From positions 71,594 through 135,593 of the forward strand of contig JAKLDJ010000004.1 in the NCBI GenBank assembly GCA_022703585.1: a DNA stretch of 64,000 nt. Direction: 5' to 3'. Below the pieces are notes generated by a model. That model had not been told where the DNA came from, searched no databases, and was given only the letters and a program-made list of their open reading frames with translations. The DNA is from Candidatus Omnitrophota bacterium. Lineage in GTDB: Bacteria > Omnitrophota > Gorgyraeia > Zapsychrales > JAKLDJ01. Shown here one piece after another: positions 5,421 through 46,488 of the stretch. The position numbers and the translations under genes were made by a program. The first letter of the stretch is position 1. Each line of letters opens with the position of its first letter.

Positions 5421-5423
5421 CCG

Positions 5424-8551: not shown

Positions 8552-8564
8552 GAAGGTTTCTAAA

Positions 8565-9791: not shown

Positions 9792-9807
9792 GAAAGGACA
9801 GTTTAAA

Positions 9808-10419: not shown

Positions 10420-10421
10420 AA

Positions 10422-14342: not shown

Positions 14343-14417
14343 CCGTTGTAAGCACATCATTAAAAGACGCATTAAACTGTTTAATTAAACGTCAACACAA
14401 AAAGAAAGAGGGTAAAC

Positions 14418-14663
14418 ATGGAAGTAAGAATCAGGTTACAAAAAGTAGGACAAACCGCAAAAAAAAGATACAACTACCGGATTGTTGCCATAAACCGCAG
14501 CAATTCACGCCAAGGCAGACATCTGGATATTATCGGATATTACGATCCTGCCAAAAAACCGGCGGTTTTATCGTTTAACCAGGAAAAATTAAACACATGG
14601 ATTAAAAAAGGCGCCCGGATGTCGGACACCGTCAAAAGCCTTATTGCCAAAAAGAAAGGGTAA
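14418..14663 (+). CDS. rpsP: 30S ribosomal protein S16
   Basis: 81 aa, MEVRIRLQKVG...YRIVA...GYYDP S16 signature. Confidence 0.95.
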   Translation: MEVRIRLQKVGQTAKKRYNYRIVAINRSNSRQGRHLDIIGYYDPAKKPAVLSFNQEKLNTWIKKGARMSDTVKSLIAKKKG

Positions 14664-14666
14664 ATC

Positions 14667-14957
14667 ATGCCACCAGAACAATCCGGAAATCCTTTTGGAT
14701 CGCTATTGATATTTGTTTACGCGGCTATTTTTATGATCTGGTATTTCCTGGTTATCAAGCCGAACCGCGAAAAACAAAACCAGCAGAAGAAAATGCTCAC
14801 GAATTTAAAGAAAAATGATGAGGTTGTAACCGTCGGGGGAATTCACGGCACCATCGTTAACGTTAAAGAGACCACCGTCATTGTCCGCATCGACGATAAC
14901 GTCAAGATGGAAGTAGATAAAGAGGCGGTCACAACCATTACCAAGGTCGCCGGTTAA
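14667..14957 (+). CDS. yajC: Preprotein translocase subunit YajC
   Basis: 96 aa. Single TM helix plus the conserved YajC C-terminal segment (VVTVGGIHGTIVNVKETTVIVRIDDNVKMEV). Sits upstream of secDF. Confidence 0.85.
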   Translation: MPPEQSGNPFGSLLIFVYAAIFMIWYFLVIKPNREKQNQQKKMLTNLKKNDEVVTVGGIHGTIVNVKETTVIVRIDDNVKMEVDKEAVTTITKVAG

Positions 14958-31933: not shown

Positions 31934-32233
31934 ATGTCCGACCAATTTATAAGCGTCAGAGAAGCCGCGCAGACCCTCGGTGTAACCGAAAAGAAAATCA
32001 TGGACTTAATCGACGAGGGAAAGTTGCATGCCTACAAAATTGCAGGACAATTTTTACGGCTAAAGAAAAGCGAAGTCTTAGACACCCAGGATGGGGGAAC
32101 GGTAGCAACAGAATTCAATCATTACCCTTACACCCGGGCCGAACGCATCAAAGACTTCTTTTACTTCAACGACTTTTACATTCTATCGCTTGTAATTATC
32201 TTGGCGCTTTTATACGTCATCTTTTACCGGTAA
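31934..32233 (+). CDS. Excisionase-family HTH (HTH_17-like) protein with C-terminal TM anchor
   Basis: ISVREAAQTLGVTEKKIMDLIDEGKLHAYKIAGQFLRLKKSEV HTH pattern followed by the hydrophobic helix ILSLVIILALLYVIF. Confidence 0.6.
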   Translation: MSDQFISVREAAQTLGVTEKKIMDLIDEGKLHAYKIAGQFLRLKKSEVLDTQDGGTVATEFNHYPYTRAERIKDFFYFNDFYILSLVIILALLYVIFYR

Positions 32234-32243
32234 ATAAAAATTT

Positions 32244-32597
32244 ATGCATCATAACGCTATCGTCGTCGCTTCCGGCATGATCGCCCTCCTGGTGTCGGGG
32301 TGTCTCACCCCGTCCGGCAGTAAAACCCGCCCGGATCCCAAGCAAGTACTTGAACTAAAAATACAGAATTTCCAGGCCTTGGAGCAGGCGATTAAGACCG
32401 GCGCCATCCAGGCCGGGATGACGACCGAACAAATCCGAGAATCTTACGGTGAACCAGACGATATTTTCAGCTCAGGATCAACAATGGGAGAATTCGAAAT
32501 CTGGGCTTACGAACGCATTACAGCAAAAAGCGCCGATGTCTTCCGTCCCGTAAGGCTCTATTTCAACAACAACAAATTAGTCAGCTGGCATTATTAA
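32244..32597 (+). CDS. Lipoprotein, BamE/SmpA-OmlA-like
   Basis: Lipobox LVSGC after the signal peptide. Small beta-rich domain with GMTTEQIRESYGEPD, reminiscent of BamE. Confidence 0.5.
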   Translation: MHHNAIVVASGMIALLVSGCLTPSGSKTRPDPKQVLELKIQNFQALEQAIKTGAIQAGMTTEQIRESYGEPDDIFSSGSTMGEFEIWAYERITAKSADVFRPVRLYFNNNKLVSWHY

Positions 32598-32710: not shown

Positions 32711-32756
32711 TTTTATTGGCGGGGTAGCTCAGCCCGATAGAGCACTCGGCTCATAC
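32711..32756 (+). repeat. attL-like direct repeat (7 nt upstream plus first 39 nt of the tRNA(CAT) gene)
   Basis: ttttattggcggggtagctcagcccgatagagcactcggctcatac is identical to 46325-46370. The copy diverges immediately after the anticodon loop. Confidence 0.85.
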
Positions 32757-32864
32757 GCTATAAAATTAGAAATTAAAATTCAATTTTTTACTCCCATCAT
32801 TAATTAAATCCTCCCAAATAACCTTCATTGATTAAGAATAAGTTTGTCATAACGCTAAAATGTT

Positions 32865-33773
32865 ATGAAATTAAACGATGCGTATGATGAATTTATCAAC
32901 TCAGCACTTTTGGAAAGATGTTTAGAGCAAACAACTATTGATTGGTATTCTCGTTGCATTCAGCCAGTATTTAAATACTTCCGCTACAACCTCATTCCGC
33001 TAGAAGTTGATTCTCTAACAGTCGAAAATCTAAGAAAATATTTTATTAGTTACAAACAAAAAGGAAACACTTCAAGGACTGTGCTTAATGCAATGCAGGG
33101 CACTAGGTCTTTTTGTAGTTTTCTACTCAAGAGGGGGTATTTGCAAAAAAATCCTTTCCTTGAACTTGAAAAACCAAAGCTACCTAAAACACTTCCTGAA
33201 TTCTTAGATGAAGAAGAGGCAAAAAAATTACTACAAGCATGTATTAATCTCAAAAGAACCTACAAATCTAGGTGGAGCAGAGACATTGCTATTATCGCTT
33301 TGTTTCTCTTTGCTGGTTTGCGCAAGAAAGAACTTTTAAACTTAAAACTAAACGATTTCAATCAAGAAAAAGGATATATCAAAGTTTCTGCAAAGAATAA
33401 AGAGAGATTAGTTCCATTATGCGATACAGCTAAATCATTTCTACTGGATTATCTGAAAATAAGACCCAAAAGAGTGCTGGTCGATAATATTTTTGTGTCT
33501 ACTAACAGAAAATCATCTGCACTAACGCAACAGGGGTTATACGATTTATTCCTGGATTTACGTAAGCTAGTACAGTTTAGGATAAAGAAAAAGCTTAGCC
33601 CCCAAATTCTGAGGCATACTTTTTGCACCTTAATGCTCCGAAATGGCGTAAATTTGCGGGATATTCAGCTTTTAGCAGGGCATTCGGATATATCTACTAC
33701 GGCAAGATTTTATTTGGGGTGTGATGAAAAACAGCTAAAAAGTGCGGTAGATAGACATCCGTTGAATATTTGA
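32865..33773 (+). CDS. int: Tyrosine-type site-specific recombinase/integrase
   Basis: C-terminal catalytic region LRHTFCTLMLRNGVNLRDIQLLAGHSDISTTARFY (R...HxxR...Y). N-terminal SAM-like core-binding domain. Confidence 0.9.
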   Translation: MKLNDAYDEFINSALLERCLEQTTIDWYSRCIQPVFKYFRYNLIPLEVDSLTVENLRKYFISYKQKGNTSRTVLNAMQGTRSFCSFLLKRGYLQKNPFLELEKPKLPKTLPEFLDEEEAKKLLQACINLKRTYKSRWSRDIAIIALFLFAGLRKKELLNLKLNDFNQEKGYIKVSAKNKERLVPLCDTAKSFLLDYLKIRPKRVLVDNIFVSTNRKSSALTQQGLYDLFLDLRKLVQFRIKKKLSPQILRHTFCTLMLRNGVNLRDIQLLAGHSDISTTARFYLGCDEKQLKSAVDRHPLNI

Positions 33774-33797
33774 TTTTACCAGAAGAAAGCGTATAAT

Positions 33798-36700
33798 ATG
33801 CGCATGTCCGCATTAGTCGAAGAAAGAATAAAGAGATGGAAAAACAAATTAATAGACCTATCTAAACGTAATCGACTCCTCAATTTTAAGCCCACCAAAA
33901 CAACCACTATTCAGATTGTAGACGAAATTCCATCAGAAGCTTATCGTACTATTGTTCTAAATGAAAGTGTCATGTCTTTTCTTCCAGCAGATGGCGATAT
34001 CGAAGGCGACAAAGACAATACGGGTTCTTCCAGTCAGCTTGAAATAAAAGAATTTCAAGATTACGCTCAAGAAGAATTAGACACAAAACACACTGATTTA
34101 TACCTTCAAACAAACTTGGGTGAAAGCCATCTCGACAAGAATTTATTTCGCATTACTTCAATCGCTACATCGGTTATGGAAGAACAAGGTTATAACTCTT
34201 TGTTTTTGGCATTAGGTTTTTTGGAGTGGTATGAATCAAAAGATTCGGATGTTAAGTTTAGGTCTCCTATCCTTTTAATTCCTGTGCAATTAAACAGAAA
34301 ATCAGTCAAAAGTGATTATACTTTGAGTTTTGGTGAAGATGCGCCTATTTTGAATCCTGCATTAATATATATGCTTTCGCTTGATTTTGGCATTGATTTA
34401 GAGGACATAAGCGAAGAATTAGAACAAATTGAACCCAGAGAAATATTCAGAAAAATACAGGAAGCGATTCAGGAATTTGAACGTTGGAAAGTAACTAATG
34501 ATATCTTTTTAAGTTTGTTTTCATTTACGAAATTTATTATGTTTAAAGATTTAGAAAAGAATATGGGCACGCTCATTGATAATAAAGTTATCCAAATTAT
34601 TTGTGGTGTGGGGAGAGAAGAAAATATAGCCTTGGACGACATTTGCCCATTAGGAGAAATTGAGAAAAATACGAAACCGGAGAAAACTTTTCAAATTCTT
34701 GATGCAGACTCAAGCCAACAAAGAGCAATTCTCGTAGTCAAAAAAGGACATAACCTTATTATCGAAGGCCCCCCAGGAACAGGAAAGTCGCAAACAATAG
34801 CCAACATGATTGCGGAAAGTCTAACAGAAGGGAAGAAAGTATTATTTGTGAGTGAGAAAATGGCAGCTCTTGAGGTTGTAAAGAATCGGCTTGAATTAGC
34901 CGGTATTGGAGATTATTGCTTAGAACTGCATAGCCGTAAGACTAATAAAAAAAGGGTAGCTGAGGAACTTGGAAGGGTGATGGAACAACGAAAAAAGCCC
35001 GACCATAGCCATAATGATGAATTAGCTAAATTAGAGAGATTGCGTTCAGAATTAAATCGCTACGTATCAGATTTGCATAAAATATTTGGCGGGCTTCAGA
35101 TGACCCCGTACCAAGCAATTGGGATAGTTAATGCACATCCAGATATGCCAGACTTAGAATACATGTTTAATAACACCAAAGAGTGGTCAAAAGATAAATT
35201 TGATATAATCTGTGAACTTTTTGAGAAATTAAGTCGAAATATATTGAATATCGGACAACCACGATTGCATCCTTGGTTCGGTACAAGTCTTATCGAATTA
35301 GTTTATTCTGACAAAACAAATCTAAGAAACCATTTCAATAACATAAGTAGAATAGTTTCTGAGCTAAAAATTAGTATTGATGCATTGAGTGAAATCAGTT
35401 CATTTGGTGATGTAAAAACTATTTCCGATATTCAAGAATTGTTAGATGCATCTGAAATTTTGAAACTTTCGCCTAACGTAGCAAGTGATTTGCTAAAAGA
35501 TAAACGTTGGAATGATATCAGTGCAGATGTGAGACAAGCTATTAGTGCAGTACAAACATTTAATACTTTTGAGAAGAAATATTCAAGCCAGTATAAAATG
35601 ACGGTGTTGAATGAAAACATTGAGGAGATTCTCCAAAGATATAAAACTTATACGAGTAACATGTTTTTTGTATTTAAATTTAGTTTCTGGAAAGATAGTA
35701 AAGTTCTCAAGAGTCATTTTACAGGTAAGAGAAAAATTAACCTAAAGGAACTAATCAAGGAATTAGACGAATTATTTCTTTGGAAAAAGTCTGCACAGCA
35801 AATAGACGATTTTAGTAAAAATGGAAATGAGCTTTTTGGTGAACGATGGAGAGGGCGTAAGTCCAGTGGCGAAGAACTCCAAAAGTTCTCAGAATGGATT
35901 GTCAAATTTAGATATCATGTAATTAAGAATCATTTTAAAGATAAGGTTTTTGAAAGCAGCAAAGATAAATCTTCTCTTGAAGATTTACAAACGAAAGTAA
36001 AAAACAACTTGGATGAATTTAATGGTGTTTTAAGCTCAATCAATAGCATCGTAAAATTCGATTATAAATTAGCTTTTAGTACTAAGCTCTGCGAACATAA
36101 TGACCTTGATATGATAAGAGGGAAATTAAATAAGATGAGCGAGTCGATGGAAGAAGTAGACCCTTGGCTAAGCTTTCAGAGAGTATACCAAGAATGTGAG
36201 AAGGAGGGGTTAACTGAATTTATTGATGTGCTTTTAGCCAAAGATATTAAACCAGAAGCATACGTGACGGCTTTTAAATGTCAATTCTTACGATGTTGGT
36301 TGGATGAGGTTTTCTCTGAGAGAGATAGATTAAGAAATTTTCAAGGTAAAAACCATGAACAATTGATTGAGCAATTCAAACAATTAGATTGCAAACAAAT
36401 TGAATTGGCAAAGGTTCGAATCCAACATCTTCTTTCTGGAAATTATGATTCAAGTTGGAAAGGAGCTCAGAGTTCTGAGAGAGGAATACTGGAGCGTGAA
36501 GTTAGAAAAAAAAGAGCACATAAGCCTCTTAGAAAGTTATTTAAAGAAATACCTCACTTGTTATTATCACTAAAACCCTGTTTAATGATGAGTCCTTTAA
36601 CTGTCGCACAGTTTTTGGAGCCAGACTTATTCGATTTTGACTTGGTTATTTTTGATGAAGCTAGCCAAGTGCCTCCTCAGGACAGTATTGGAGCAATTAT

Positions 36701-38498
36701 GCGTGGTAAGCAAATAGTTATTGCAGGTGACGCTAAGCAGTTGCCACCAACTTCATTTTTTCAATCAACGGTATTGGATACTGAAGATGATGATGAATTT
36801 GATGAGTATATCCCAGAAGATTTAGATAGCATTCTAGATGAATGTGCGTCAGTTGGCTTGCCTCGGACTTTATTAGAATGGCATTACAGAAGCAAACACG
36901 AGTCTTTAATCGCATATTCGAACAAATATTATTATGAAAATAGATTAAATACTTTTCCTAATTCAATAGATGTGAGTGATACGCTTGGAATTAAATTCAA
37001 TTATTTTCCAGAGTCACAGTACCGTAAGGGCGGTGTAAATATTCTTGAAGCACAAGAAGTTGCTAAAAGAGTGTTTCAACATTTTAAGGAGAATCCTGAT
37101 ATAAGTTTAGGTGTGGGGACGTTCAGTATCAAACAAAAATATGCCATAGAGGATGCTGTTGAAGAATTAAGAAAGAACGATACAAGCTTAGAAGACTTGT
37201 TTTCTCCGGATAGGCCAGAGCATTTCTTTGTTAAGAATCTAGAATCAATACAGGGAGATGAGCGAGACGTAATCTTTATTAGTATTGGATATGGTAAGGA
37301 TGATTCTGGAAAATTGCCAATGAGATTTGGACCTATTAATCAACTGGGTGGAGAGCGAAGGCTTAATGTTCTTATTACGCGAGCAAGAAGACGATTAGAA
37401 ATCTTCAGCTCAATACGAGGCTCCGACTTTGACTTGACTAAAACAGAAAGTGAGGGAGTGCACCTTCTCAAGAAATATCTCGATTATGCTGAGCTGGGAA
37501 GAAGCGTACTGCTTCAGGATATCGAATATTCGAATTCATCTAGTTATTCTGACTCTCCATTCGAGGAGGCAGTATATGAATCTTTAGTCAGGGCAGGATT
37601 TAAGGTTCATCAACAAGTTGGGTGTTCAGAATATAGAATTGATATGGCTATCGTCGATGTTGAATTACCGGGCAAGTATGTACTTGGCATTGAATGTGAT
37701 GGAGCAAATTATCATTCAAGTATTACAGCAAGAGATAGGGATAGACTGAGACAGCAGGTCTTAGAGGGCCTGGGATGGAATATTTATCGAATTTGGTCTA
37801 CCGATTGGTTTAAAAATAAGAAGAAGGAAACAGAAAGATTGATTGAGGCAATTAGAGAAAGCCAGAAGGGAAATAGTAAAAAAAAACTAAATAAATATAC
37901 TAGTTTTGAAATAAAACTCAATTCCGCCTCCACAGAGACATTATCGAATAAAGATAGGAAATTGGTAGATTATCAATTAACTCCCGTGGATTCCATCAGA
38001 ACATCAGATTTTTATTATCAATCAGATGAAGTTCTAGCTCAAATTTTAATTAAAATAGTCAAGTGTGAGGGGCCGATTTTTTATGAAGAAGCATGGAGGA
38101 GATTAATCCAACACTGGGGGATGCGGTCTGTAGGCAGTAGGATTCGACTCAAATTAAAAGGCTTAGAGCAATACTGCTTAAATAATAAGAAATTTGAGAA
38201 ACGAAAAGATTTTTATTGGCTTAATAAGCATCAAGAATTGAAGATTAGGAACAGAGACGTTAACGATGTTTATAAAAAGATTGAGTATGTTGCCCCAGAG
38301 GAAGTCCAAGAAGCAGTGAAATATGTTTTAAATATGGAGTACTCAATACCACTAGTTTCTTTAATATCTCAAACAGCTAAATCATTAGGCTTCCATAGGA
38401 TTGGTGATGACGTTTATTCATATATTAAGAAAGCGATTGATTTGCTTATAAAAAATGAAGATTTGTATGAAGACAACGGCAATATAAGGATTAAGTAA
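33798..38498 (+). CDS. Giant helicase-nuclease: DUF4011-like N-terminus, Upf1-like SF1 helicase (AAA_11/AAA_12), Vsr/DUF559-like PD-(D/E)xK nuclease and DUF3320-like tail
   Basis: 1566 aa. SF1 motifs: Walker A EGPPGTGKSQT, Walker B VIFDEASQV, motif III IAGDAKQLPPT, motif V IQGDERDVIFIS, motif VI NVLITRARRRLEIF. C-terminal endonuclease-like block: FEEAVYESLVRAGFKV...EYRIDMAIVD...LGIECDGANYH. Confidence 0.8.
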   Translation: MRMSALVEERIKRWKNKLIDLSKRNRLLNFKPTKTTTIQIVDEIPSEAYRTIVLNESVMSFLPADGDIEGDKDNTGSSSQLEIKEFQDYAQEELDTKHTDLYLQTNLGESHLDKNLFRITSIATSVMEEQGYNSLFLALGFLEWYESKDSDVKFRSPILLIPVQLNRKSVKSDYTLSFGEDAPILNPALIYMLSLDFGIDLEDISEELEQIEPREIFRKIQEAIQEFERWKVTNDIFLSLFSFTKFIMFKDLEKNMGTLIDNKVIQIICGVGREENIALDDICPLGEIEKNTKPEKTFQILDADSSQQRAILVVKKGHNLIIEGPPGTGKSQTIANMIAESLTEGKKVLFVSEKMAALEVVKNRLELAGIGDYCLELHSRKTNKKRVAEELGRVMEQRKKPDHSHNDELAKLERLRSELNRYVSDLHKIFGGLQMTPYQAIGIVNAHPDMPDLEYMFNNTKEWSKDKFDIICELFEKLSRNILNIGQPRLHPWFGTSLIELVYSDKTNLRNHFNNISRIVSELKISIDALSEISSFGDVKTISDIQELLDASEILKLSPNVASDLLKDKRWNDISADVRQAISAVQTFNTFEKKYSSQYKMTVLNENIEEILQRYKTYTSNMFFVFKFSFWKDSKVLKSHFTGKRKINLKELIKELDELFLWKKSAQQIDDFSKNGNELFGERWRGRKSSGEELQKFSEWIVKFRYHVIKNHFKDKVFESSKDKSSLEDLQTKVKNNLDEFNGVLSSINSIVKFDYKLAFSTKLCEHNDLDMIRGKLNKMSESMEEVDPWLSFQRVYQECEKEGLTEFIDVLLAKDIKPEAYVTAFKCQFLRCWLDEVFSERDRLRNFQGKNHEQLIEQFKQLDCKQIELAKVRIQHLLSGNYDSSWKGAQSSERGILEREVRKKRAHKPLRKLFKEIPHLLLSLKPCLMMSPLTVAQFLEPDLFDFDLVIFDEASQVPPQDSIGAIMRGKQIVIAGDAKQLPPTSFFQSTVLDTEDDDEFDEYIPEDLDSILDECASVGLPRTLLEWHYRSKHESLIAYSNKYYYENRLNTFPNSIDVSDTLGIKFNYFPESQYRKGGVNILEAQEVAKRVFQHFKENPDISLGVGTFSIKQKYAIEDAVEELRKNDTSLEDLFSPDRPEHFFVKNLESIQGDERDVIFISIGYGKDDSGKLPMRFGPINQLGGERRLNVLITRARRRLEIFSSIRGSDFDLTKTESEGVHLLKKYLDYAELGRSVLLQDIEYSNSSSYSDSPFEEAVYESLVRAGFKVHQQVGCSEYRIDMAIVDVELPGKYVLGIECDGANYHSSITARDRDRLRQQVLEGLGWNIYRIWSTDWFKNKKKETERLIEAIRESQKGNSKKKLNKYTSFEIKLNSASTETLSNKDRKLVDYQLTPVDSIRTSDFYYQSDEVLAQILIKIVKCEGPIFYEEAWRRLIQHWGMRSVGSRIRLKLKGLEQYCLNNKKFEKRKDFYWLNKHQELKIRNRDVNDVYKKIEYVAPEEVQEAVKYVLNMEYSIPLVSLISQTAKSLGFHRIGDDVYSYIKKAIDLLIKNEDLYEDNGNIRIK

Positions 38499-38524
38499 AA
38501 TATGTTTTAATAAATATACAATTT

Positions 38525-38734
38525 ATGAATGACCTATTTGATGAATTCTTAGAATATGATTTTACTATGGGGGTTGATGTTGTGAAGTGCCCGCATTGCG
38601 GTGGTGACGTGCAATGCAGCCTTTTCATTGATAGCGAAGTTGAATGTTCAGGGTGTGGAAAAAAATTTCATAAGGATGAATTAAGAGCAAATCGTAAGAA
38701 TCCTAAAGACACAATACCTAAACAGCCGAATTAG
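38525..38734 (+). CDS. Small zinc-ribbon protein
   Basis: 69 aa with CPHCGG...CSGCGKKFH (two CxxC pairs). 26 bp downstream of the helicase-nuclease gene. Confidence 0.5.
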   Translation: MNDLFDEFLEYDFTMGVDVVKCPHCGGDVQCSLFIDSEVECSGCGKKFHKDELRANRKNPKDTIPKQPN

Positions 38735-38777
38735 GTCGAGAAAAGGTTCTGTCTTTATATTATAGGGCATAGAAACT

Positions 38778-41309
38778 ATGTTTAATTTCTTCAAATTTCA
38801 AAATTATCGCTCTTACTGGAAAATAAGAAATTTGGTTTTATTATCTAAATTTTGGATACATAGGTTGTTTTTTCAAGGTAATTTAAAAATAAAAGACGCT
38901 CAGGAAGAGTTGTCAATAGTTACTCACCTAACATGGCTTGCTTCAAAAACCATTCTTTTTTCTATTCTTATCGTAGTATCTTGTGAATCATTCGAAAAAG
39001 CAATATTAAAATTTCTCCCTACTAATACAACAATCCTTCTAGCGGGAATGCACGACTTAGTTATAAGAAACTCCAGTTCTTTGGAGAATTTTATCATGAC
39101 GATTGCTTCGATACTAGGCGTGTTCTTGGGTCTTTACTTTACTGCAATTAGTATCGTAGCTAGCTCGGTATTTACAGCTGTGCCGAGCAATGTTAGAGAG
39201 TTGTACTTAAAAGAGAAAATTGGGAATACCTATATACGGATATTGGCTATCCTTTTAGCAATTTCGATTATAATCTTTGGCTGTCGGATATTTGGCTATT
39301 ACCCAAGCACGCTGCTAACCGTTTTAATGCTGATTTTTAGCTGTGTCAGCATATTCGCATTTGTAATGTTGGGGGTTAGAGCCTTTTCCTTCTTCGACCC
39401 CACTGTGTTAGTAGATATAATTTTTGCGGATTTATATGCAGATATAAGATTGGCGAGTGTAAGTGGCCTAAGGTGGCTCGATTCTAACTTTCAGTCTCAT
39501 TACCATAAGCTTGCATCAAAAAACGTAAACACCCTTGCTAATTTGGTCGAAATATGTCTAAAAAATCCTCATTTATACAAGAAATCTGTCCCGTTGCTAT
39601 CATGGCGTCTATGCTATTTTTTAAAAGATTATCAAATGCAAAAAGCCCGAATACCTACTGATAGTTACTGGTTTTCACGTATACCAAAATATAAAGACAC
39701 CTTCATCGTAGACGACACAACTTTAACAGTAGCATTACAAACTCAAACTTCTATTCAACCGGAATCTATAACTGATAATTATTGGCTGGAAGATGAAATT
39801 TTTGAAATCCTTACGAATATGCTTAGCATTATGTTAAATAATCACAATATTATAATCTCTGCCGATATTTTAGATGGTATTAATAAATATTTTGAAGATT
39901 TGGGAGAGAAACTGGAGGGTAAGAAATGCTGCGATATGTTTAAGAAAATAGAAGCAGTAATGGAACCTTATTTTCTAAGTCTTTCTGAAGAAAAATGTAA
40001 AGGAATAGCGGATGTAAATTTTGCTCTGTTTGATAGATATAACATGCTTCTGTTGTCTTGCGCGATGGGATTCAATAAATTTATTCGTGAATTCAAAACA
40101 TCTTCCTTTATGCAAAACATAGATTCCATTTTGTGGGAGGATAGGGGTGCTATTTATCGAAACTCTATGGTGCCGATGCTATTGGAAAGGCTAGAATTCC
40201 TCCAAAAACGCCTCGAATTTGAACAGAAAGTAGAAGGGGAGTTTGTTAGCCCTACTTGGTACAGAAGACAGTTACTTAGTAATAAAATTGGCTTAATAGT
40301 GAACGAAGTTTTTGAATCAATGATGAGTTCATTGCAAAATTTTTATGTTAATAGTTCCAGCGCACTTTTAAACAAAAAAGCAGTTATCTTAACAACATAT
40401 AGGGCAAAAAGAGGTCTCGAAGTATTCTGGAAAATGCAAACCCATATTCTGCATCTCAAGAAACTGATTGAAAATCTCGAAAAATTTAACATAGAAAAAG
40501 AATTGTTTTGGCCAAAGTGGGATTGGGATGTTATTGAGAAGAAAATCGATAAAAATAATGATGCCCTCATACAACAAGAAGCTAAATGCCTTCCGGCACT
40601 ATCTATCATAAATAAAACAGAGAATGAGCCAGACCTCTTCGGCGAAACATATCATAAAATCTGTGAAGAATGTTTTGCATCTTTGGCAAATAATAAAGAT
40701 GAAAAATTCTCCACAATATTTCATTCCTTATTTATAGGTGCTCTTCAAGCGCATGACCGCCTTAGAATTTCGTATAAAGACCGTGACGCCAGAACTCAAA
40801 TATTAATTTCATTTCAGCCATTAGCAGACCTTATAGAAGTAAGTGGCTATGCCAAAATATATTCTGAGTTGTTCTCTTCTCCAAAACTATGGGAAACGTG
40901 CCAGGAATGTTGGAATAATTATTTAAATAATAAAGAAAAGAAAGATGAAACAATAGAATACATCATTACGAGTTACCAATATAAAAAGGCACAATTCGGT
41001 TTATTTGCACGAGATATTTGGAAAACAAATTGGCAAATTAAACTTAATAGAAAATTGCAAGAAATGAATTTAATCGACAGTATGTTTAGAGAAGACGATT
41101 ATCCGAGAAAGCCAAAAGAGAGACTTGCGGATAAAAGTCCTTTTATCCGAACTCTGTGCAGAGGGAGATATGAACCATTTATTCGTGCTTCAGAAATTTT
41201 TCTCCTCATTTATTTTGTAAAACAACTTGGAGTTAAGAACTTTTCCGATAATCATAATTTTATTCGGCATTTGGAAGAGGAAGAAGCTAAGACCAATGTT
41301 ACGAAATAA
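38778..41309 (+). CDS. Large multi-pass membrane protein (≈6 N-terminal TM helices + ~600-aa cytoplasmic helical region), function unknown
   Basis: 843-aa ORF with hydrophobic helices between residues ~45-230 and a Lys/Glu-rich alpha-helical remainder. No recognisable catalytic motif. Confidence 0.6.
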   Translation: MFNFFKFQNYRSYWKIRNLVLLSKFWIHRLFFQGNLKIKDAQEELSIVTHLTWLASKTILFSILIVVSCESFEKAILKFLPTNTTILLAGMHDLVIRNSSSLENFIMTIASILGVFLGLYFTAISIVASSVFTAVPSNVRELYLKEKIGNTYIRILAILLAISIIIFGCRIFGYYPSTLLTVLMLIFSCVSIFAFVMLGVRAFSFFDPTVLVDIIFADLYADIRLASVSGLRWLDSNFQSHYHKLASKNVNTLANLVEICLKNPHLYKKSVPLLSWRLCYFLKDYQMQKARIPTDSYWFSRIPKYKDTFIVDDTTLTVALQTQTSIQPESITDNYWLEDEIFEILTNMLSIMLNNHNIIISADILDGINKYFEDLGEKLEGKKCCDMFKKIEAVMEPYFLSLSEEKCKGIADVNFALFDRYNMLLLSCAMGFNKFIREFKTSSFMQNIDSILWEDRGAIYRNSMVPMLLERLEFLQKRLEFEQKVEGEFVSPTWYRRQLLSNKIGLIVNEVFESMMSSLQNFYVNSSSALLNKKAVILTTYRAKRGLEVFWKMQTHILHLKKLIENLEKFNIEKELFWPKWDWDVIEKKIDKNNDALIQQEAKCLPALSIINKTENEPDLFGETYHKICEECFASLANNKDEKFSTIFHSLFIGALQAHDRLRISYKDRDARTQILISFQPLADLIEVSGYAKIYSELFSSPKLWETCQECWNNYLNNKEKKDETIEYIITSYQYKKAQFGLFARDIWKTNWQIKLNRKLQEMNLIDSMFREDDYPRKPKERLADKSPFIRTLCRGRYEPFIRASEIFLLIYFVKQLGVKNFSDNHNFIRHLEEEEAKTNVTK

Positions 41310-42279
41310 AAAAATACACCAAGACGAAAAAAGTTCGATGAAATCCATTTATTACACTCCTTTGGAGCATCGAAGGGATGTGTACAGCTCTTTTTATAAT
41401 CACATGCTAACCGAAGATATTCATTTGGGCATAATGCCCTTTGGCGGAAGAACCAAAAATGAGTTGTTTAAAGTAGCAGTTAAACCACAGGATGCGGAAA
41501 TCGAGAATTTAATAAAAGATAGTTTACTTACGCATCACGGCGAACCGTATGATTTAAAAGAAGCGATTTGCGACTTTATTGACGAAGCTGCTGCATTACT
41601 AGGATACGATGGCGTAGCTTATTACGAAATTGTATATTATACGACTTCCAAAAAGCCGACACGATTTGAGTTGCACCGTATTATCAACAGAAATATAAAA
41701 GATACGTTTGGATTATACTGGCAGTATATCCCGAGTGCTGCACGAAAATATATAGAAACGGATAAGAAATTCATCTGGCTACCTAAGAGGAGAATTATTA
41801 AAATAAAATTTCCCAGTATAATTGGTGGTTTAAATTCTCAACGAACATTAATCCACAACCTAACATGGCTGAGCGAATGTAGCGTAACACCGAAATTTGC
41901 AATGGAAGACATGAAAAAACAAAAGCAAACAAACGATTATGATTTCGTAGTTTACCAGAGAAACAAGAACATATTTTTAGCTAGAATAACGCAACGTTTA
42001 GGATGGTCTGCTCGAGGCGAATTGAATGATTATACATTAGATATTTATCAGTTATACCGATACCTAAAATTTGAGAAAACCAAAGCAATTATCCGAGAAA
42101 CTGTTTTAGGCAATCTTAATAAAGCACTAGCTACTATCGGTAAAGAAATTGGTTTTAATGCAACAATCGAAATAAGCGGTATTCCTTCAGCATCAGATTT
42201 TGATAATTACATAGATAAGCTTCTTTCGGGAGAAATGCCATTTGCCAAGGTTGTCGAGATTATGAAATATGATTGGTAA
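41296..42279 (+). CDS. Hypothetical protein, translationally coupled to the upstream membrane protein
   Basis: ATG at 41296 overlaps the preceding stop by 14 nt. 327 aa with no recognised domain. Confidence 0.5.
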   Translation: MLRNKKIHQDEKSSMKSIYYTPLEHRRDVYSSFYNHMLTEDIHLGIMPFGGRTKNELFKVAVKPQDAEIENLIKDSLLTHHGEPYDLKEAICDFIDEAAALLGYDGVAYYEIVYYTTSKKPTRFELHRIINRNIKDTFGLYWQYIPSAARKYIETDKKFIWLPKRRIIKIKFPSIIGGLNSQRTLIHNLTWLSECSVTPKFAMEDMKKQKQTNDYDFVVYQRNKNIFLARITQRLGWSARGELNDYTLDIYQLYRYLKFEKTKAIIRETVLGNLNKALATIGKEIGFNATIEISGIPSASDFDNYIDKLLSGEMPFAKVVEIMKYDW

Positions 42280-42618
42280 TAGCACTATTTGTTTCCAGAG
42301 AAAAACGCGAGATTGCCGATTAAGGCAGAAAATAGCTACCGATTAGTTAGAGGTCTATGATAAAATACCGATAAATTAACCTGATGTGGAAATGGCAGCA
42401 TAAAAATTTCAGAGAGGGAGGTTTACAGAGTAAAATATTTTAAATATTTAGGAACATAGCTTTTCCTAATTAATAAACCAACTTGTGAGAGGAAGAGACT
42501 GTGTCCTGGGCACTTCGGTGCTTGGGGCAAGCGGTCTTTCGCTTTTACTCACAAGTTGGGCGTTAGACTTAAAAATGCTTGCCCTTTTTTATTTGGGTAA
42601 GCCTAAAAGGAGGGGACA

Positions 42619-43131
42619 ATGATAGCATCGCTAGTAACTTTAATAATTGTTATTGGGTCATCGATTTGGATAGCTATTGATGCACATCGAAACAAGATTT
42701 CCACTGACAATAAGCCGTACCGGATAAATAGCGGTGCTGTGACTTGGTTTTTTGCTTGTCTCTTATTCTGGATTTTTGTACTCCCTGCCTATCTCTTCAA
42801 GAGATTCAAACATCTAAAAGCCCAAGGAAAAAACTCTATCCTAGCAACTGTAGTGGGGATTATTCTGTTAGCAGTTCCAATCATGATGTTTACTGGCATC
42901 ATGAAGATGCCCACCTTAGACCTCCAAGAACAGGTTAAGCAAAGCATAATAGAGACGTGGTCAAGAGAGCCAACGATGGCAAATACTCAAATTCAGTCCT
43001 TTACGTTAATTCACAAAAGCAACAACCAGTATGAGGGTTTACTTGAAGTCACGATGAATGGGGTGGCTACAAGATTTCTCATAGATGTCACGTACGATGG
43101 TAGGAAATTTATGTGGCAAATTAGGCAATAA
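42619..43131 (+). CDS. Small membrane protein (2-3 TM helices + C-terminal soluble domain)
   Basis: 170 aa with GGAGGGG RBS and hydrophobic segments at residues ~5-25, 40-60 and 70-95. Confidence 0.5.
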   Translation: MIASLVTLIIVIGSSIWIAIDAHRNKISTDNKPYRINSGAVTWFFACLLFWIFVLPAYLFKRFKHLKAQGKNSILATVVGIILLAVPIMMFTGIMKMPTLDLQEQVKQSIIETWSREPTMANTQIQSFTLIHKSNNQYEGLLEVTMNGVATRFLIDVTYDGRKFMWQIRQ

Positions 43132-43627
43132 TCTCTGGCATAGCTTTTTAAACATTTTGTAGTCTAAGAACTTATCAAAACTGCTTCGAAAAGCATATTA
43201 TATTATTCAAAAGTTTCCTATAAAGCATCAAGCCCCACCAATCTTTCCCCGAAAATACATCGAAGAAAACCACTTTGTAAATCTAATTAAATATCATAAA
43301 TCATTTATTTGCAACAGGTTACTGTTAGTCACTACAGATTTTTATACAAAAAATAGGCGTATTCAGAGAAAGATAGGGTAGGTAGAGCTAAATTTCAGAC
43401 CGGGGTTGAGCGAAGAGCGACCCACCGGGTATTGGTCAACCATCAAAGAGTAGTCACGTAGACTACTAGTCGATGGCTATCAGTGCTGCCTAGCAAATCA
43501 CATGTTGCTCAAGAATTCGTTGAACCTAGCCTATGCCGGAGCGCAAATAAGCAGCTCCAAATTTAATCTGCCAACTATTTCTAAATGTTTTTCTCGTCGA
43601 GAAATCAAGTTTTTCAAAAAAAAGTAC

Positions 43628-43656
43628 TTGACAAAATTATTTTTGTGTTCTATAAT
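43628..43656 (+). promoter_or_regulatory. Consensus sigma70 promoter (TTGACA-N17-TATAAT) inside the island
   Basis: ttgacaaaattatttttgtgttctataat has perfect hexamers with 17-nt spacing. It reads into the iteron-like repeats and the small ORF / repO-like gene. Confidence 0.6.
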
Positions 43657-43689
43657 TTGCTTGTAACATGTTGGTGCTGAATGACTTGC

Positions 43690-43817
43690 GTGGATTTTTT
43701 GCGGACGAAAAGTGGATTTTTCATGGAAATAGAGTGGATTTTTCGTAATATATCTGAAAGGAGGTGATAATATTTAAAGAATAAAAAAATAAAAGAAAAC
43801 GGATAAATCGTGGATTT
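43690..43817 (+). repeat. Iteron-like direct repeats GTGGATTTTT (x3 at ~21-23-bp spacing, plus a fourth degenerate copy)
   Basis: gtggattttt occurs at 43690, 43710 and 43733, with cgtggattta at 43808. Two-helical-turn spacing, located immediately upstream of a lambda-O-like initiator gene. Confidence 0.55.
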
Positions 43818-43937
43818 AGCGATTTATAGTAGCCCTTACTCTGTCTGGTGTAGATTAGGGGCATTTTTTTAACATAACCTTCTGATTCTTAGCTGAATCG
43901 GGGGGTTTTTTATTAAAGAATAAAGAAGGAGGGCTCT

Positions 43938-44156
43938 ATGAATAACAAACCAAAACAAAAAATCAGATTCGGCGATGTCAATTTATGCGTCTGGGAAAAT
44001 ACGATTAAGATAAAGGATAATGCTGTCCCGGTTTTGACATATACTTTCAGCAAATCGTATCGTTCGAGAGGTAAATTCAAATACATGAGAAACTTTCAAA
44101 AACAGGATTTACCTAACATCACCAAAGCGATAGAAATAATTTCTGGTTCTCGCTGA
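43938..44156 (+). CDS. Small hypothetical protein
   Basis: 72-aa ORF with AAGGAGGG RBS. Lys-rich and of no recognisable family. Confidence 0.4.
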   Translation: MNNKPKQKIRFGDVNLCVWENTIKIKDNAVPVLTYTFSKSYRSRGKFKYMRNFQKQDLPNITKAIEIISGSR

Positions 44157-44221
44157 GCAAAACTAGATAAAGAAAAAATATATATCAAAATACAACTTTA
44201 AAATAAAAAGGAGATAAAAAA

Positions 44222-45139
44222 ATGGACAATTTTAAAAACCTTTGGCAACCCTACGATGATAAGAAATCACTTTTGTGGACAAAAATTCCAAATTGCTTAT
44301 TGCTTTTTCTTATGCAAGGTAAGCAAAGGTTCACAGAAATTAGAATTATTTTATTAATTTGTCGTATGGGCTTCGGATTCAAAAGAGAGGAGACTAATTA
44401 TCTTGATTTGAAAGACTTTGAAAAAGCCACAGGATTAAATAAAAGCCAAGCTTCTAAGGCAATAAATTCACTCTTAAGCGCATATGTGATATTCCGCTAC
44501 TCGAAGAATGGTAACAAGTATAAGTATGCAGTTAATCTTTTGAAGCATGGCATAGAAATGAAGCATTTCCGAATTGGTAAAATGGATAGCCAAAAAGATA
44601 ATGGGATTTATCAGATTGGAAATATAGATTACCAATTAGACAATTATAACGGCTCGAAGAATGAGCTAATTCTATATAGTTCCAAGGGTTACAAGAATGT
44701 AAAAAACCCCTATATAAAAGAGGATAGAAAAGATGATATAAAAATAGATATAGCAAAAAGGCATGCCAGTAGTCCTGTTTCTAGCAGTCCTACTAGCAAT
44801 ACTTTAACTGGCAACGCTAGCCAAACTACCAAGAGTAAAAAATACAATAACACCATGGAATTAGCTCAGGATTTTGATAAAGAACTATATAAAGCAAATA
44901 TAGAAAAGGATGGTGAAAAATTGCTAATTAGATTCATAGAATTAGAGCATTCACAATTTCCCGACCAAAGGCAACCTTGGCTCATACCAAGTATTTATTG
45001 TGACTATACAGCCAGAAAAATAGCTGGATTAACTGAGGAGATGTATACCAAAGAGCTTAATAAAATTCTGGAAAATGCCAATAAGTTACGAAACGAATTA
45101 AACTCTAGATGTAGCGAATTACTAAAGAATAAAAAATAG
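44222..45139 (+). CDS. Replication initiator / replisome organiser, phage lambda O-like N-terminal winged-helix
   Basis: N-terminal segment TEIRIILLICRMGFGFKREETNYLDLKDFEKATGLNKSQASKAINSLLSAYVI follows the lambda O / phage_rep_org_N pattern (xxLLxIxRxTxGxxK...TGL...AIxxL). Adjacent to iteron-like repeats. Confidence 0.55.
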   Translation: MDNFKNLWQPYDDKKSLLWTKIPNCLLLFLMQGKQRFTEIRIILLICRMGFGFKREETNYLDLKDFEKATGLNKSQASKAINSLLSAYVIFRYSKNGNKYKYAVNLLKHGIEMKHFRIGKMDSQKDNGIYQIGNIDYQLDNYNGSKNELILYSSKGYKNVKNPYIKEDRKDDIKIDIAKRHASSPVSSSPTSNTLTGNASQTTKSKKYNNTMELAQDFDKELYKANIEKDGEKLLIRFIELEHSQFPDQRQPWLIPSIYCDYTARKIAGLTEEMYTKELNKILENANKLRNELNSRCSELLKNKK

Positions 45140-45219
45140 AATAATACATCTATCGCGTTTTTGCGAAGGAACATTTCCATTGACATTTGCTGAAGCATTT
45201 GTTATGGTATACCAAAACT

Positions 45220-45393
45220 ATGAAATACTATACCATAAGTCAACTTGCTAAAGAGCTTAAAGTGCATAAAAATACCATTTTCTATTGGGAGAAAACGGGT
45301 AAAATACCTAAACCCAAGAGAGAATCTGTAAGCGGTTATCGTGTTTGGACAGAGAAAGATGTAAAAAAGATAAGAGAGTCAAATTCGAGGTGA
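45220..45393 (+). CDS. MerR/excisionase-like HTH protein (candidate Xis or regulator)
   Basis: 57 aa. YTISQLAKELKVHKNTIFYWEKTGKIPKPKRESVSGYRVWTEKDVKKI follows the MerR-type/Xis pattern. Sits near attR. Confidence 0.5.
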   Translation: MKYYTISQLAKELKVHKNTIFYWEKTGKIPKPKRESVSGYRVWTEKDVKKIRESNSR

Positions 45394-45396
45394 AAA

Positions 45397-46215
45397 ATGA
45401 CAATAAATAACTACGATGAATCTCACATAGAACGAAAATATTTTATCGATGGACATATGTATAATTGTCCTTTCTGTAATATTAGAAATGTACAATACGA
45501 GATTTCTAATTCGGGAAGATTTTCTTGGTCACGTGAGCGAGATTGCTATTTTTATCTTGTCAAGTGCAGTCATTGCGACCACACTTCTTTTCATTTAAGT
45601 AATTATGATTTGGTTAGAAATTATGGTCATTTTGAAAATCCGCCAAAACAGCGTAAGATTATTCAAGGAGAAAATCAAAGCTTCAAAATTTTGAAAAATG
45701 GAGTAGAAGTCATGGAGCTTGATGAAGTATTCTTTTATCATCAGCCAACAAGCTTCTTCACAATAGATAACAGAATACCTGAAATTATACGAAATCTTCT
45801 TTCTGAAGCTGAAGGCTGTAGAAAAATGGATTATCTTGTGGGTGCTTCGGGCTGTTTAAGAAAAGCTATTTATGAATTGCTAGACTTACAAGAAATCGGC
45901 AACGAAGAAAATGATACTAAATTACCCTACGAGGAAAGAATAAAACGACTAAAAGGAAAATTTCCTAACATAGATTCGGAATATTTTGATATTCTTGCTG
46001 GAATACAAGGCATGACAAGCGATAACCTTCATGAAGGTTCTTGGGATAGCTTTGATTCTCGAACTCTAGCTCTATTAATAGAGACAACCAAAGAAATCTT
46101 ATATGAAATTTATGTTTTACCTGATGAAAAAAAGACAAAAAGGAACATAATAGCTAAAATGCGAGAACAATTTAAACAACAAAAATCAACAGCCGATACC
46201 GAATCAAAAACTTAA
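45397..46215 (+). CDS. Zinc-finger protein with C-terminal DUF4145-like helical domain
   Basis: N-terminal CPFCN...CSHCDH zinc ribbon. The C-terminal ~100 aa (LRKAIYELLDL...ILAGIQGMTSDNLHEG...) resembles a DUF4145-type module, recalled from memory. Confidence 0.4.
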   Translation: MTINNYDESHIERKYFIDGHMYNCPFCNIRNVQYEISNSGRFSWSRERDCYFYLVKCSHCDHTSFHLSNYDLVRNYGHFENPPKQRKIIQGENQSFKILKNGVEVMELDEVFFYHQPTSFFTIDNRIPEIIRNLLSEAEGCRKMDYLVGASGCLRKAIYELLDLQEIGNEENDTKLPYEERIKRLKGKFPNIDSEYFDILAGIQGMTSDNLHEGSWDSFDSRTLALLIETTKEILYEIYVLPDEKKTKRNIIAKMREQFKQQKSTADTESKT

Positions 46216-46324
46216 TTTAATAACAGAAAGGAGAAAGCATACTAGACAAATAATTCTTAGTCAATGGTTGTAAAAAATATTGAATTTTTGTCAATTTTAG
46301 CTTAGAATCCTTCAATTATATTAA

Positions 46325-46370
46325 TTTTATTGGCGGGGTAGCTCAGCCCGATAGAGCACTCGGCTCATAC
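46325..46370 (+). repeat. attR-like direct repeat (7 nt upstream plus first 39 nt of the intact tRNA)
   Basis: Identical 46-mer to 32711-32756. Confidence 0.85.
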
Positions 46371-46405
46371 CCGATTGGTCGAGAGTTTAAATCTCTCCCC
46401 CGCCA
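46332..46405 (+). tRNA. tRNA with CAT anticodon (elongator Met or Ile2/lysidine type)
   Basis: Hand-folded cloverleaf: acceptor GGCGGGG/CCCCGCC, D-arm GCTC-loop-GAGC, anticodon loop CTCATAC (CAT), T-arm GAGAG-TTTAAAT-CTCTC, discriminator A, no encoded CCA. G1-C72 rules out the initiator. tilS lies 1.2 kb downstream. Confidence 0.8.
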
Positions 46406-46488
46406 CTTTCTCTCACAAACCCCACCCGAAAATTCCGTAGATTACTTTGCCCCGTATCAGTATAATAAGGAAGCAAAGGAGGGGACCC

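Follow-up and report, generated by a model that had tools for sequence, protein, structure and literature searches.

A Putatively Mobile Two-Gene Module of a Predicted Solenoid-Bearing Membrane Protein and a Basic Partner, a Possible Membrane-Anchored Conflict System

Results and Discussion

In the stretch of 64,000 nucleotides from a Candidatus Omnitrophota bacterium analyzed here (contig JAKLDJ010000004.1, termed the window), the gene for an 843-aa membrane protein (gene A) is followed by the gene for a 327-aa soluble protein (gene B). The two most plausibly constitute an obligate, translationally coupled and horizontally mobile two-gene module. As for its role, we favor, at slightly less than an even chance, an undescribed membrane-anchored two-gene anti-phage or anti-plasmid (conflict) system. 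By analogy, A and B would resemble Kiwa or Tmn without being homologous to them. Coordinates are summarized in Table 1.

Table 1. Features of the A-B pair and of the element carrying it, with positions in the window.
Feature	Position	Strand	Description
Left 51-nt direct repeat, attL-like	32711..32761	+	Repeat family D2, 96% identical to 46325-46375
Tyrosine integrase of the element	32865..33773	+	Pfam Phage_integrase, E 3.3e-28
Helicase-nuclease, 1,566 aa	33798..38498	+	DUF4011, SF1 helicase, MTES_1575 nuclease domain, DUF3320 (Pfam)
Gene A	38778..41309	+	843-aa integral membrane protein; four predicted TM helices and cytoplasmic alpha-solenoid
Membrane domain of A	38916..39389	+	Residues about 47-204; four predicted TM helices, N-in/C-in
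Cytoplasmic domain of A	39468..41306	+	Residues 231-843; predicted alpha-helical repeat/solenoid with one beta-hairpin (300-333)
A/B overlap	41296..41309	+	14 nt, B start codon to A stop codon
Gene B	41296..42279	+	327-aa soluble basic partner, unannotated family
Right 51-nt direct repeat	46325..46375	+	Overlaps the 5' half of tRNA-Met (46332-46406)

Gene A Belongs to a Large Unannotated Family

Gene A starts with an ATG, and this start call is supported because the homologues share a conserved N-terminus, with M1 kept in at least 90% of their sequences. The open reading frame proposed by a sequence-only reading of this DNA was thereby confirmed. The same reading had regarded the protein as an orphan, which turned out to be wrong. 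Using a word search 37 homologues were found, while an exhaustive profile search yielded 1,669 representatives, a family size of at least 1,669 clusters at 50% identity. Gene A is here the founding member of an unannotated family. No match for it was obtained in Pfam, PADLOC, NCBIfam or PHROGs, and 37 family members compared with the PADLOC models in a lax scan (E <= 1) gave zero matches. Sequence-profile searches of the PDB with alignments A1, A3 and A4, the last of them representing gene B, returned chance matches only.

The motif scan of gene A revealed neither Walker A ([AG]xxxxGK[ST]) nor PLD HxK(x)4D nor Rx4-6H motifs, and an AAA, KAP or NTPase family match was absent in Pfam and PADLOC, in agreement with the earlier statement that Walker, PLD and HEPN-type motifs are missing. 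A catalytic or transport signature, likewise reported as lacking before, was found neither by sequence nor by fold comparison. No homology of A to permease or sensor histidine kinase families was found either. The Cys pairs CCD and CQEC pointed out previously are present in A (C384-C385-D and C708-Q-E-C711, with C629-E-E-C632 in addition), but they are not features of the family: C384 is conserved in 14%, C385 in 11% and C711 in 8% of the sequences, and C629, C632 and C708 are replaced by A, V, L or I in distant members. A metal-binding Cys site was discarded on these grounds, and a metal site in A is therefore unlikely.

A Predicted Four-Helix Membrane Domain With a Cytoplasmic Solenoid

By hydropathy, A is predicted to be an inner-membrane protein with four TM helices and N-in/C-in topology. 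About six hydrophobic helices had been counted before in the N-terminal 230 aa. The membrane location was retained, but only four segments reach TM-level hydrophobicity (residues about 47-69, 101-131, 150-172 and 176-204), the same four being obtained from the hydropathy of A and from the family average, and the remaining helices of this region are amphipathic. The topology was deduced from positive-inside counts (K+R per loop) and places the large C-terminal domain in the cytoplasm. Conservation in A peaks in TM2, in the loop joining TM2 to TM3 and at the end of TM4. The most conserved motif of the family, IASxxGVFLGLYFTAIS with invariant F116, L119 and Y120, is located in TM2, while FxxLGxRAFxFFDP, with FFDP at residues 205-208, is found at the end of TM4. 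This conservation of the TM region suggests that the membrane domain does more than anchor A.

Residues 231-843 contain 9.3% K, 8.3% E and 6.5% N, which matches the earlier description of a K/E/N-rich C-terminal part of about 600 aa. It had also been called alpha-helical, and in the AF2 model of A (mean pLDDT 85.1, pTM 0.74) it is all helix with the exception of one beta-hairpin at residues 300-333. According to the predicted topology, this roughly 600-aa alpha-solenoid faces the cytoplasm. Conserved patches are spread along it: IPTDSxWY (292-299), YWLE (335-338), ISPxWY (490-495), PDxFG (618-622) and PLxDLxELSGYAKIYSEL (681-698). A fold search with the model, a check proposed together with the original reading, gave matches to alpha-solenoid and helical-repeat proteins only. 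The HEAT/ARM solenoids among them (PP2A-A, importin-beta, TOG, the Avs4 sensor arm) share 5-12% identity with A, no Pfam repeat family was matched, and none of these four is anchored by an N-terminal 4-TM bundle, unlike A. The modeled likeness is one of fold class, not of family.

Gene B Is the Constant Partner of Gene A

The sequence-only reading had overlooked gene B and had treated A as a lone effector, whereas B accompanies A essentially always. Its ATG at 41296 was read from the sequence and agrees with the 327-aa NCBI model HOW36294.1. The 14-nt overlap of the two genes is, as judged from the sequence, an arrangement for translational coupling. Across 42 locus rows, 37 show an in-frame ATG of B whose overlap with the A stop amounts to 4-17 nt, with 8 nt as the commonest length. 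Wherever A is full-length and the contig extends far enough beyond it, B lies directly downstream, the pairs on two plasmids and at locus L050 included; the single exception to adjacency is L038, with a B fragment 2.1 kb away. Identities to the window proteins co-vary for A and B (r = 0.97, 40 pairs). Moreover, in the one natural fusion known, P0140, B is joined to the C-terminus of A, with residues 858-1140 matching B (E 8e-39). No third conserved neighbor was detected across the loci, where only A and B cluster.

The B family is basic (median pI 9.4) and B is without a TM segment (maximum 19-aa hydropathy 1.0). In the family alignment D41, Q143, F201, G236, Y251, R267, N275 and L309 are invariant. 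No Pfam, PADLOC or PDB match was found for B, and lax scans (E <= 1) of 34 B members against Pfam, PHROGs and PADLOC yielded no recurrent family, the sole signal being phrog_14843, a family of unknown function, in four members (best E 5e-4). As the structure model of B is poor (pLDDT 60.5, from a shallow alignment of 12 sequences), its biochemical role is a guess from charge and conservation.

One such guess would have B dock on A as a ring protein of the portal or connector type, serving as a membrane DNA conduit or as a decoy for phage packaging or ejection machinery. B is of similar size to phi29-type connectors (about 310 aa), and weak, recurrent, non-significant structural matches to portals and connectors were obtained with the poor model (pLDDT 60.5). 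Profile comparisons of B with phi29 gp10 and with a 7-sequence connector profile were negative (hhalign probabilities of 0.2% and 0.09%; only phi29-type connectors were compared by profile), no portal family appeared in the PHROGs or Pfam scans, and B was not found in phage genomes. We consider this idea highly improbable.

The Pair Is Cargo of an Integrative Element in the Window

In the window, the A-B pair is carried on a 13.6-kb low-GC integrative element at tRNA-Met, and between the 51-nt repeats GC falls from about 0.47 to about 0.35. The defence-island setting suggested earlier was corroborated by this element and by the gene directly preceding the pair, a helicase-nuclease assigned by PADLOC to PDC-S37 (1627 bits) and to Hhe (E 1.4e-208). 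A literature search for PDC-S37 and for the RefSeq accessions found nothing. The Rfam scan of the island detected tRNA only, and the promoter/terminator scan of 38300-43300 performed no better than on shuffled sequence. A small zinc-ribbon gene upstream of A was rejected as a conserved component, as it was seen in the window only.

The neighboring helicase-nuclease bears on the proposal that A alone acts as a pore-forming or membrane-disrupting effector, possibly in the service of PDC-S37/Hhe. The two genes share a strand, with A starting 280 nt past the end of the helicase-nuclease gene, and the TM bundle of A is conserved. Nevertheless, the helicase-nuclease was found beside A in none of about 45 other loci, B being present at the A loci examined. 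PDC-S37 and Hhe are single-gene PADLOC models spanning the whole 1,566-aa protein, and a 69-aa open reading frame plus an intergenic gap separates the two genes. Since co-occurrence at other loci was lacking, A was rejected as a PDC-S37/Hhe component, the helicase-nuclease is neighboring but independent cargo, and we give next to no credence to A as an effector on its own.

Patchy Distribution and Mobile Neighborhoods

Occurrence of the pair is patchy: it was found in more than 15 bacterial phyla, on an archaeal contig and on two plasmids, one of Burkholderia glumae (NZ_CP021077, 142013-145551) and one of Paenibacillus lautus (pAZOPL1, 216907-220373). Bacterial taxa comprise Omnitrophota, Bacteroidota, Pseudomonadota, Bacillota and Actinomycetota, furthermore Acidobacteriota, Chlamydiota, Verrucomicrobiota, Thermodesulfobacteriota and many Patescibacteria. 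Taxon counts are biased, as one peptide pattern served as the only seed of the genome scan. Large serine recombinases lie within 7 kb of the pair in 10 loci. On a Burkholderia glumae plasmid the pair is situated between IS66 and IS21 elements and adjoins VapBC, at L050 it adjoins a recombinase and a TraG/TrwB-like protein, and at L001 a BrnT/CopG toxin-antitoxin pair. At L004, a divergent A/B pair occupies the same TilS/FtsH location as the window pair, with Mom, a 1,422-aa NTPase and an NgoFVII restriction-modification (R-M) system as neighbors. The flanks of 31 non-redundant loci comprise 110 genes. By raw counts, type I, II and III R-M, HNH, YgjP, toxin-antitoxin and recombinase genes recur among them; recognized defence genes make up only about one tenth, and many of the neighbors are housekeeping genes. 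The neighborhoods of L001 and L003 are otherwise of the housekeeping type, and some loci lie among core genes (RecG, PGI, tRNA synthetases, ribosomal proteins). Truncated or decayed copies were observed at L044, L049, L038 and L003. Reuse of the TM module in other architectures, which N-terminal-only matches (L041-L044) had made worth considering, was rejected, as these matches are truncated genes or contig ends. No homologue of A or B was detected in 50,697 phage genomes or in IMG/VR contigs, and a phage origin of the pair was rejected on this basis.

Such neighborhoods would also fit a module for maintenance or exclusion by the mobile element itself, either entry or superinfection exclusion or an addiction pair with a membrane toxin A restrained by B. 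The location on integrative elements and plasmids beside recombinases, IS elements and toxin-antitoxin pairs, the tightly coupled two-gene operon and the lack of the pair in phage genomes and IMG/VR contigs are all in line with it. On the other hand, 843 plus 327 aa are very large for an addiction module, several copies lie among chromosomal housekeeping genes without a recombinase in the vicinity, and the A-B fusion is hard to square with a labile antitoxin. We regard this explanation as unlikely. It overlaps heavily with a defence function, the main difference being who benefits.

Distinctly unlikely in our view is an accessory housekeeping scaffold, with A as membrane-anchored HEAT/ARM-like adaptor and B as its client or cofactor in an envelope, lipid, secretion or protein-quality process. 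The alpha-solenoid is a generic protein-protein scaffold, the loci among core genes agree with such a role, and the pair is frequent in the reduced genomes of Patescibacteria. These many matches might reflect a membrane function tied to lifestyle rather than a conflict system, with the taxon counts biased by the seeding. Against the scaffold stand the patchy occurrence across domains of life, the atypical GC and att repeats around the element in the window, the lack of a conserved pathway neighbor in about 40 loci, plasmid-borne and IS-flanked copies, and the decayed ones, as expected of dispensable cargo.

A Possible Membrane-Anchored Conflict System

The obligate pairing, the mobility, the defence neighborhood and the architecture of A were counted in favor of a conflict system. 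Counted against it were the missing PADLOC matches (37 A and 34 B members, E <= 1), the lack of a recognizable effector domain in A or B, and the low share of known defence genes among the flanking genes (about one tenth), with several loci in housekeeping surroundings.

In Kiwa, a 4-TM protein tethers a roughly 315-aa partner at the membrane, and this partner binds incoming DNA (PMC11785009). The A-B pair shows the same order and logic, a gene for a predicted 4-TM protein followed by the gene for a soluble partner of about 315-330 aa, and B is basic. However, A is four times larger than KwaA and without a match to the PADLOC KwaA models, no DUF4868/KwaB match was found among 34 B members in Pfam or PADLOC (E <= 1), and PDB profile searches were negative. 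Tmn, a transmembrane P-loop NTPase of the YobI/KAP family, is a membrane-anchored defence protein with a solenoid sensor arm (PMC13001434), and A too has a predicted cytosolic alpha-solenoid arm on a membrane anchor. In contrast to Tmn, A is without a P-loop (no Walker A, no AAA/KAP/NTPase match), and Tmn is a single gene, while A would need B.

A further comparison concerns Zorya, a MotA/MotB-like pair. Its membrane-embedded protein reaches far into the cytoplasm by a helical part, and the partner encoded by a second gene has a TM helix and a peptidoglycan-binding domain. A is likewise a membrane protein with a predicted helical cytoplasmic extension, paired with B. Nevertheless, neither A nor B matches ZorA or ZorB in PADLOC, B contains neither a TM helix nor an OmpA/MotB domain, and the cytoplasmic part of A is predicted as a folded solenoid, not as a single coiled-coil tail.

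In a conflict system of this kind, A would oligomerize via its highly conserved TM2-TM4 bundle, and the solenoid arm would serve as a docking and sensing scaffold keeping B at the membrane. An infection-linked cue might then change the A-B complex, either a protein of the phage or plasmid that binds to the arm or a disturbance of the membrane as DNA enters. Subsequently, either the TM bundle would open or disturb the membrane in an abortive, Tmn- or RexB-like manner, or B would be released or activated on incoming nucleic acid as in Kiwa. Of the two outcomes, we lean slightly toward the latter combined with membrane tethering, because B is basic with seven invariant polar residues. A bolder version, in our opinion very unlikely, is a phylum-spanning membrane immune complex of bacteria, CPR lineages and archaea without homology to known defence components. 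In it, B, basic, portal-like and perhaps forming a ring, would be kept at the inner membrane face by an oligomer of the 4-TM protein with its solenoid arms, and invading DNA or phage packaging or ejection machinery would be captured there.

Implications for Membrane-Associated Immunity

Among the branches of prokaryotic defence, immunity at the membrane is understood least, and to our knowledge mechanistic data are available only for Kiwa, Zorya, Tmn and RexAB. If A and B act in defence, they would add a sizeable protein-pair family recognized neither by the defence catalogues nor by Pfam or NCBIfam, with members in cultured Burkholderia and Paenibacillus as well as in numerous uncultured lineages, CPR bacteria and an archaeon among them. 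A solenoid sensor arm without an NTPase together with a basic partner would then be a new link from sensing to the membrane. Even if the pair does not serve defence, a pair of domains of unknown function has now been defined, together with their obligate interaction and with conserved residues that can be tested.

Protein A and its family

The ORF of 843 aa that a sequence-only reading had described as a membrane protein is genuine. The opposite strand is broken by stop codons throughout, and the ATG start is judged correct because homologues keep the N-terminus, with M1 in at least 90% of the sequences. As had been noted, no catalytic signature and no Walker, PLD or HEPN-type motif was recognizable: searches of Pfam, PADLOC, NCBIfam and PHROGs gave zero matches, and a motif search found no Walker A, PLD or Rx4-6H. 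Contrary to what had been supposed, the protein is no orphan. A word-indexed search yielded 37 full-length homologues of ~840 aa with identities down to 23%, none with a Pfam domain and every one named "hypothetical protein"; the 100% match came from a Candidatus Omnitrophota MAG. Using an exhaustive profile search with a cutoff of E <= 1e-3, 1,669 representatives at 50% clustering were obtained, 1,054 of them with E <= 1e-30, and nearly all of the best 150 of the 1,669 aligned end to end with A.

The N-terminal ~230 aa had been described as about six hydrophobic helices. The hydrophobic membrane part was recovered, with four helices instead: Kyte-Doolittle analysis gave transmembrane segments at about 47-69, 101-131, 150-172 and 176-204, the same four appeared in the family average, and past residue 230 no segment reached the transmembrane threshold. 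The family mean of K+R was 9.9 for the N-terminal tail, 2.9 for loop 1-2, 3.4 for loop 2-3 (18 aa) and 0.2 for loop 3-4. By the positive-inside rule we infer an N-in/C-in topology, which would place the large C-terminal domain in the cytoplasm. Residues 231-843 are rich in K, E and N, as reported earlier (9.3, 8.3 and 6.5%), and the cytoplasmic domain is mildly acidic (median pI 6.4). Conservation peaks in TM2 (IASxxGVFLGLYFTAIS; invariant F116, L119, Y120), in the TM2-TM3 loop and at the end of TM4 (FxxLGxRAFxFFDP), with separate highly conserved patches in the cytoplasmic domain. The Cys motifs pointed out before exist in the window protein and are not a family trait. Cys occupies C384/C385 in 14/11% of the members and C711 in 8%, and the better-kept positions change to A, V, L or I in distant members, which fits buried hydrophobic sites rather than a metal site. 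An AF2 model from the 37-sequence alignment was confident (mean pLDDT 85.1, pTM 0.74) and helical throughout, the sole exception being a beta-hairpin at 300-333. A is thus predicted to be a membrane protein that combines four TM helices with a HEAT/ARM-like arm in the cytoplasm, a label that denotes a fold class and not a family.

Gene B and its pairing with A

The start of B overlaps the end of A by 14 nt. A B homologue lies directly downstream of A in essentially every retrieved locus with a full-length A and sufficient downstream DNA, including an Omnitrophota relative (69% identity), a very distant locus (24% identity), two plasmids of cultured bacteria and L050. Deviations from this pattern were contig ends (L007, L008, L032), truncated A genes (L041-L044, L049) and L038, with its fragment of B at a distance of 2.1 kb. 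An in-frame ATG of B overlaps the A stop in 37 of 42 locus rows, by 4-17 nt and most commonly by 8 nt, which indicates conserved translational coupling. Identities of A and B to the window proteins co-vary (r = 0.97), and in P0140 (1,145 aa) the two proteins are naturally fused, with residues 858-1140 matching B (32% identity, E 8e-39). A and B form an obligate, co-translated, horizontally mobile pair.

Several loci deviate (see table). An SNF2 helicase, a transglutaminase-core protein and an HNH_2 protein are encoded near the P0140 fusion. At L003, whose contig carries ribosomal protein genes of archaeal type, tblastn covers residues 12-323 of B and the longest ORF has only 224 aa; this could reflect a frameshift, a start elsewhere or a pseudogene. 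The decayed copies at L038, L044 and L049 are consistent with a module that is dispensable cargo.

With a 19-aa hydropathy of at most 1.0, protein B is soluble, and a median pI of 9.4 across 34 members marks it as basic. In the 34-sequence alignment A4, D41, Q143, F201, G236, Y251, R267, N275 and L309 are invariant, and M47, P48, G106, E111, P173, G177, P199 and T232 nearly so. None of the 34 members gave a consistent Pfam or PADLOC match at E <= 1, B profile searches of the PDB were empty, and a large protein collection contributed solely further unannotated proteins of ~325 aa. Weak PHROGs matches of 4 of the 34 members to phrog_14843 (unknown function; best E 5e-4) are the sole sign that B might have a relative encoded by phages; window B had no tblastn match in phage genomes. 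The AF2 model of B was poor (pLDDT 60.5, pTM 0.62) because the alignment was shallow (12 sequences). In profile comparisons with portal-type proteins, the B profile reached hhalign probabilities of 0.2% against phi29 gp10 and 0.09% against a 7-sequence connector profile. A portal relationship thus stands as a tentative lead, and a portal-like DNA conduit or decoy is very improbable.

The integrative element

The pair sits in a 13.6-kb segment with a GC content of 0.32-0.38 versus 0.45-0.51 outside. From the left, it encodes a tyrosine integrase, a PDC-S37/Hhe-type helicase-nuclease, a zinc-ribbon ORF, A, B, a membrane protein of 170 aa and, at the right end, genes for RepO-like, MerR-type HTH and phrog_1305 DNA-binding proteins. 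This layout resembles a satellite or integrative mobilizable element carrying defence cargo.

Features of the window element and of selected A/B loci
Locus	Feature	Position	Strand	Remarks
Window	Excisionase-like HTH gene	31934-32233	+	Just beyond left repeat
Window	117-aa gene	within 31934-32597	+	Weak BamE/DUF3862 similarity; just beyond left repeat
Window	Left direct repeat	32711-32761		51 nt, 96% identical to right copy
Window	Integrative element	about 32762-46324		Low GC, bounded by 51-nt repeats, at tRNA-Met
Window	Helicase-nuclease	33798-38498	+	1,566 aa; DUF4011, SF1 helicase, MTES_1575 nuclease domain, DUF3320
Window	Zinc-ribbon ORF	38525-38734	+	69 aa, CPHC...CSGC; weak Pfam zinc-ribbon matches; in helicase-nuclease/A gap
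Window	Gene A	38778-41309	+	843 aa, ATG start; stop TAA 41307-41309
Window	Gene B	41296-42279	+	327 aa, true start ATG 41296, agrees with NCBI model
Window	Membrane protein	42619-43131	+	170 aa, downstream of B
Window	Apparently non-coding	43131-43938		~800 nt after 170-aa gene
Window	Right direct repeat	46325-46375		51 nt, 5' half of tRNA-Met (46332-46406)
L003	A, then B-like region	10001-13560		A 867 aa
L004	Very divergent A/B pair	10001-13331		23-24% identity
L038	A and B fragment	10001-14822		B fragment displaced 2.1 kb from A
L044	Truncated A	9899-10978		359 aa, integrase alongside
L048	P0140 fusion	8001-11438		Single ORF
L049	A remnant, then intact B	5295-6978		A remnant 239 aa

The helicase-nuclease matched two PADLOC models, PDC-S37 over the full length (1627 bits) and Hhe with E 1.4e-208. 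Proteins of this type are already known as single-gene defence candidates; this one is independent of A/B and adjoins A in the window alone and in no other locus. The island setting noted before is real, with the A-B pair as a unit independent of this neighbour; A as a lone effector, as first proposed, is very improbable. No other locus has a counterpart of the 69-aa ORF with two CxxC motifs upstream of A, and the 170-aa protein, whose cytochrome b561-like match is sub-threshold (E 1.2e-4, 22.4 bits versus a cutoff of 30.1), is not conserved beside A/B elsewhere. The two genes beyond the left repeat may be left over from a different element at this site.

Neighbourhoods and hosts

All-against-all clustering of neighbouring ORFs revealed no third conserved neighbour; the only further recurrent cluster was large serine recombinases (10 loci), variable in position and orientation. 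We took two genes to either side at 31 non-redundant loci, 110 genes in all, and the families that recurred were serine recombinases (8), type I R-subunit helicases (4-5), DNA methylases (3), and type III methylases, type II REases, HNH and YgjP proteins (2 each). The remainder were assorted housekeeping genes. The pair lies between IS66/IS21 copies with VapBC adjoining on a conjugative Burkholderia glumae plasmid, is carried by a Paenibacillus lautus plasmid, adjoins BrnT/CopG in another Omnitrophota genome and accompanies a serine recombinase and a TraG/TrwB-like protein at L050. The L004 pair neighbours an NgoFVII-type R-M system, Mom and a 1,422-aa NTPase; TilS and FtsH flank both this pair and the window island, which suggests that related genomes share a hotspot for integration or defence. 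Hosts belong to many bacterial phyla, numerous Patescibacteria among them, and one contig encodes ribosomal proteins of archaeal type. Homologues of A or B were found neither in the phage genome collection nor in IMG/VR.

Proposed function

The pair is cargo, self-contained and patchily distributed, and from these traits together with its neighbourhood we infer a conflict or defence module. The conserved TM bundle of A would oligomerize, the solenoid arm would dock B and sense a trigger, and the output would be either membrane perturbation via the TM bundle or an action of basic B on incoming nucleic acid. We offer this mechanism as a whole tentatively, at slightly less than even chances. Among rival readings, an element-maintenance or exclusion function is unlikely and an accessory housekeeping scaffold somewhat more so. 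Two published systems are analogous in architecture. Kiwa comprises a 4-TM protein and a DNA-binding partner of ~315 aa, which the former keeps tethered to the membrane (PMC11785009). Tmn is membrane-anchored and senses a phage protein with a HEAT/ARM-like solenoid arm in the cytosol, its output being ion export (PMC13001434). Membership in either was rejected: in contrast to Kiwa, A/B have no DUF4868 or KwaA/KwaB match, in contrast to Tmn, A has no P-loop, and PADLOC gave no match. The likeness to known membrane-anchored defence systems is one of analogy only, and the pair is in no curated family or defence library searched. A-B is a solid and experimentally tractable defence candidate, copies of which are carried by cultured hosts.
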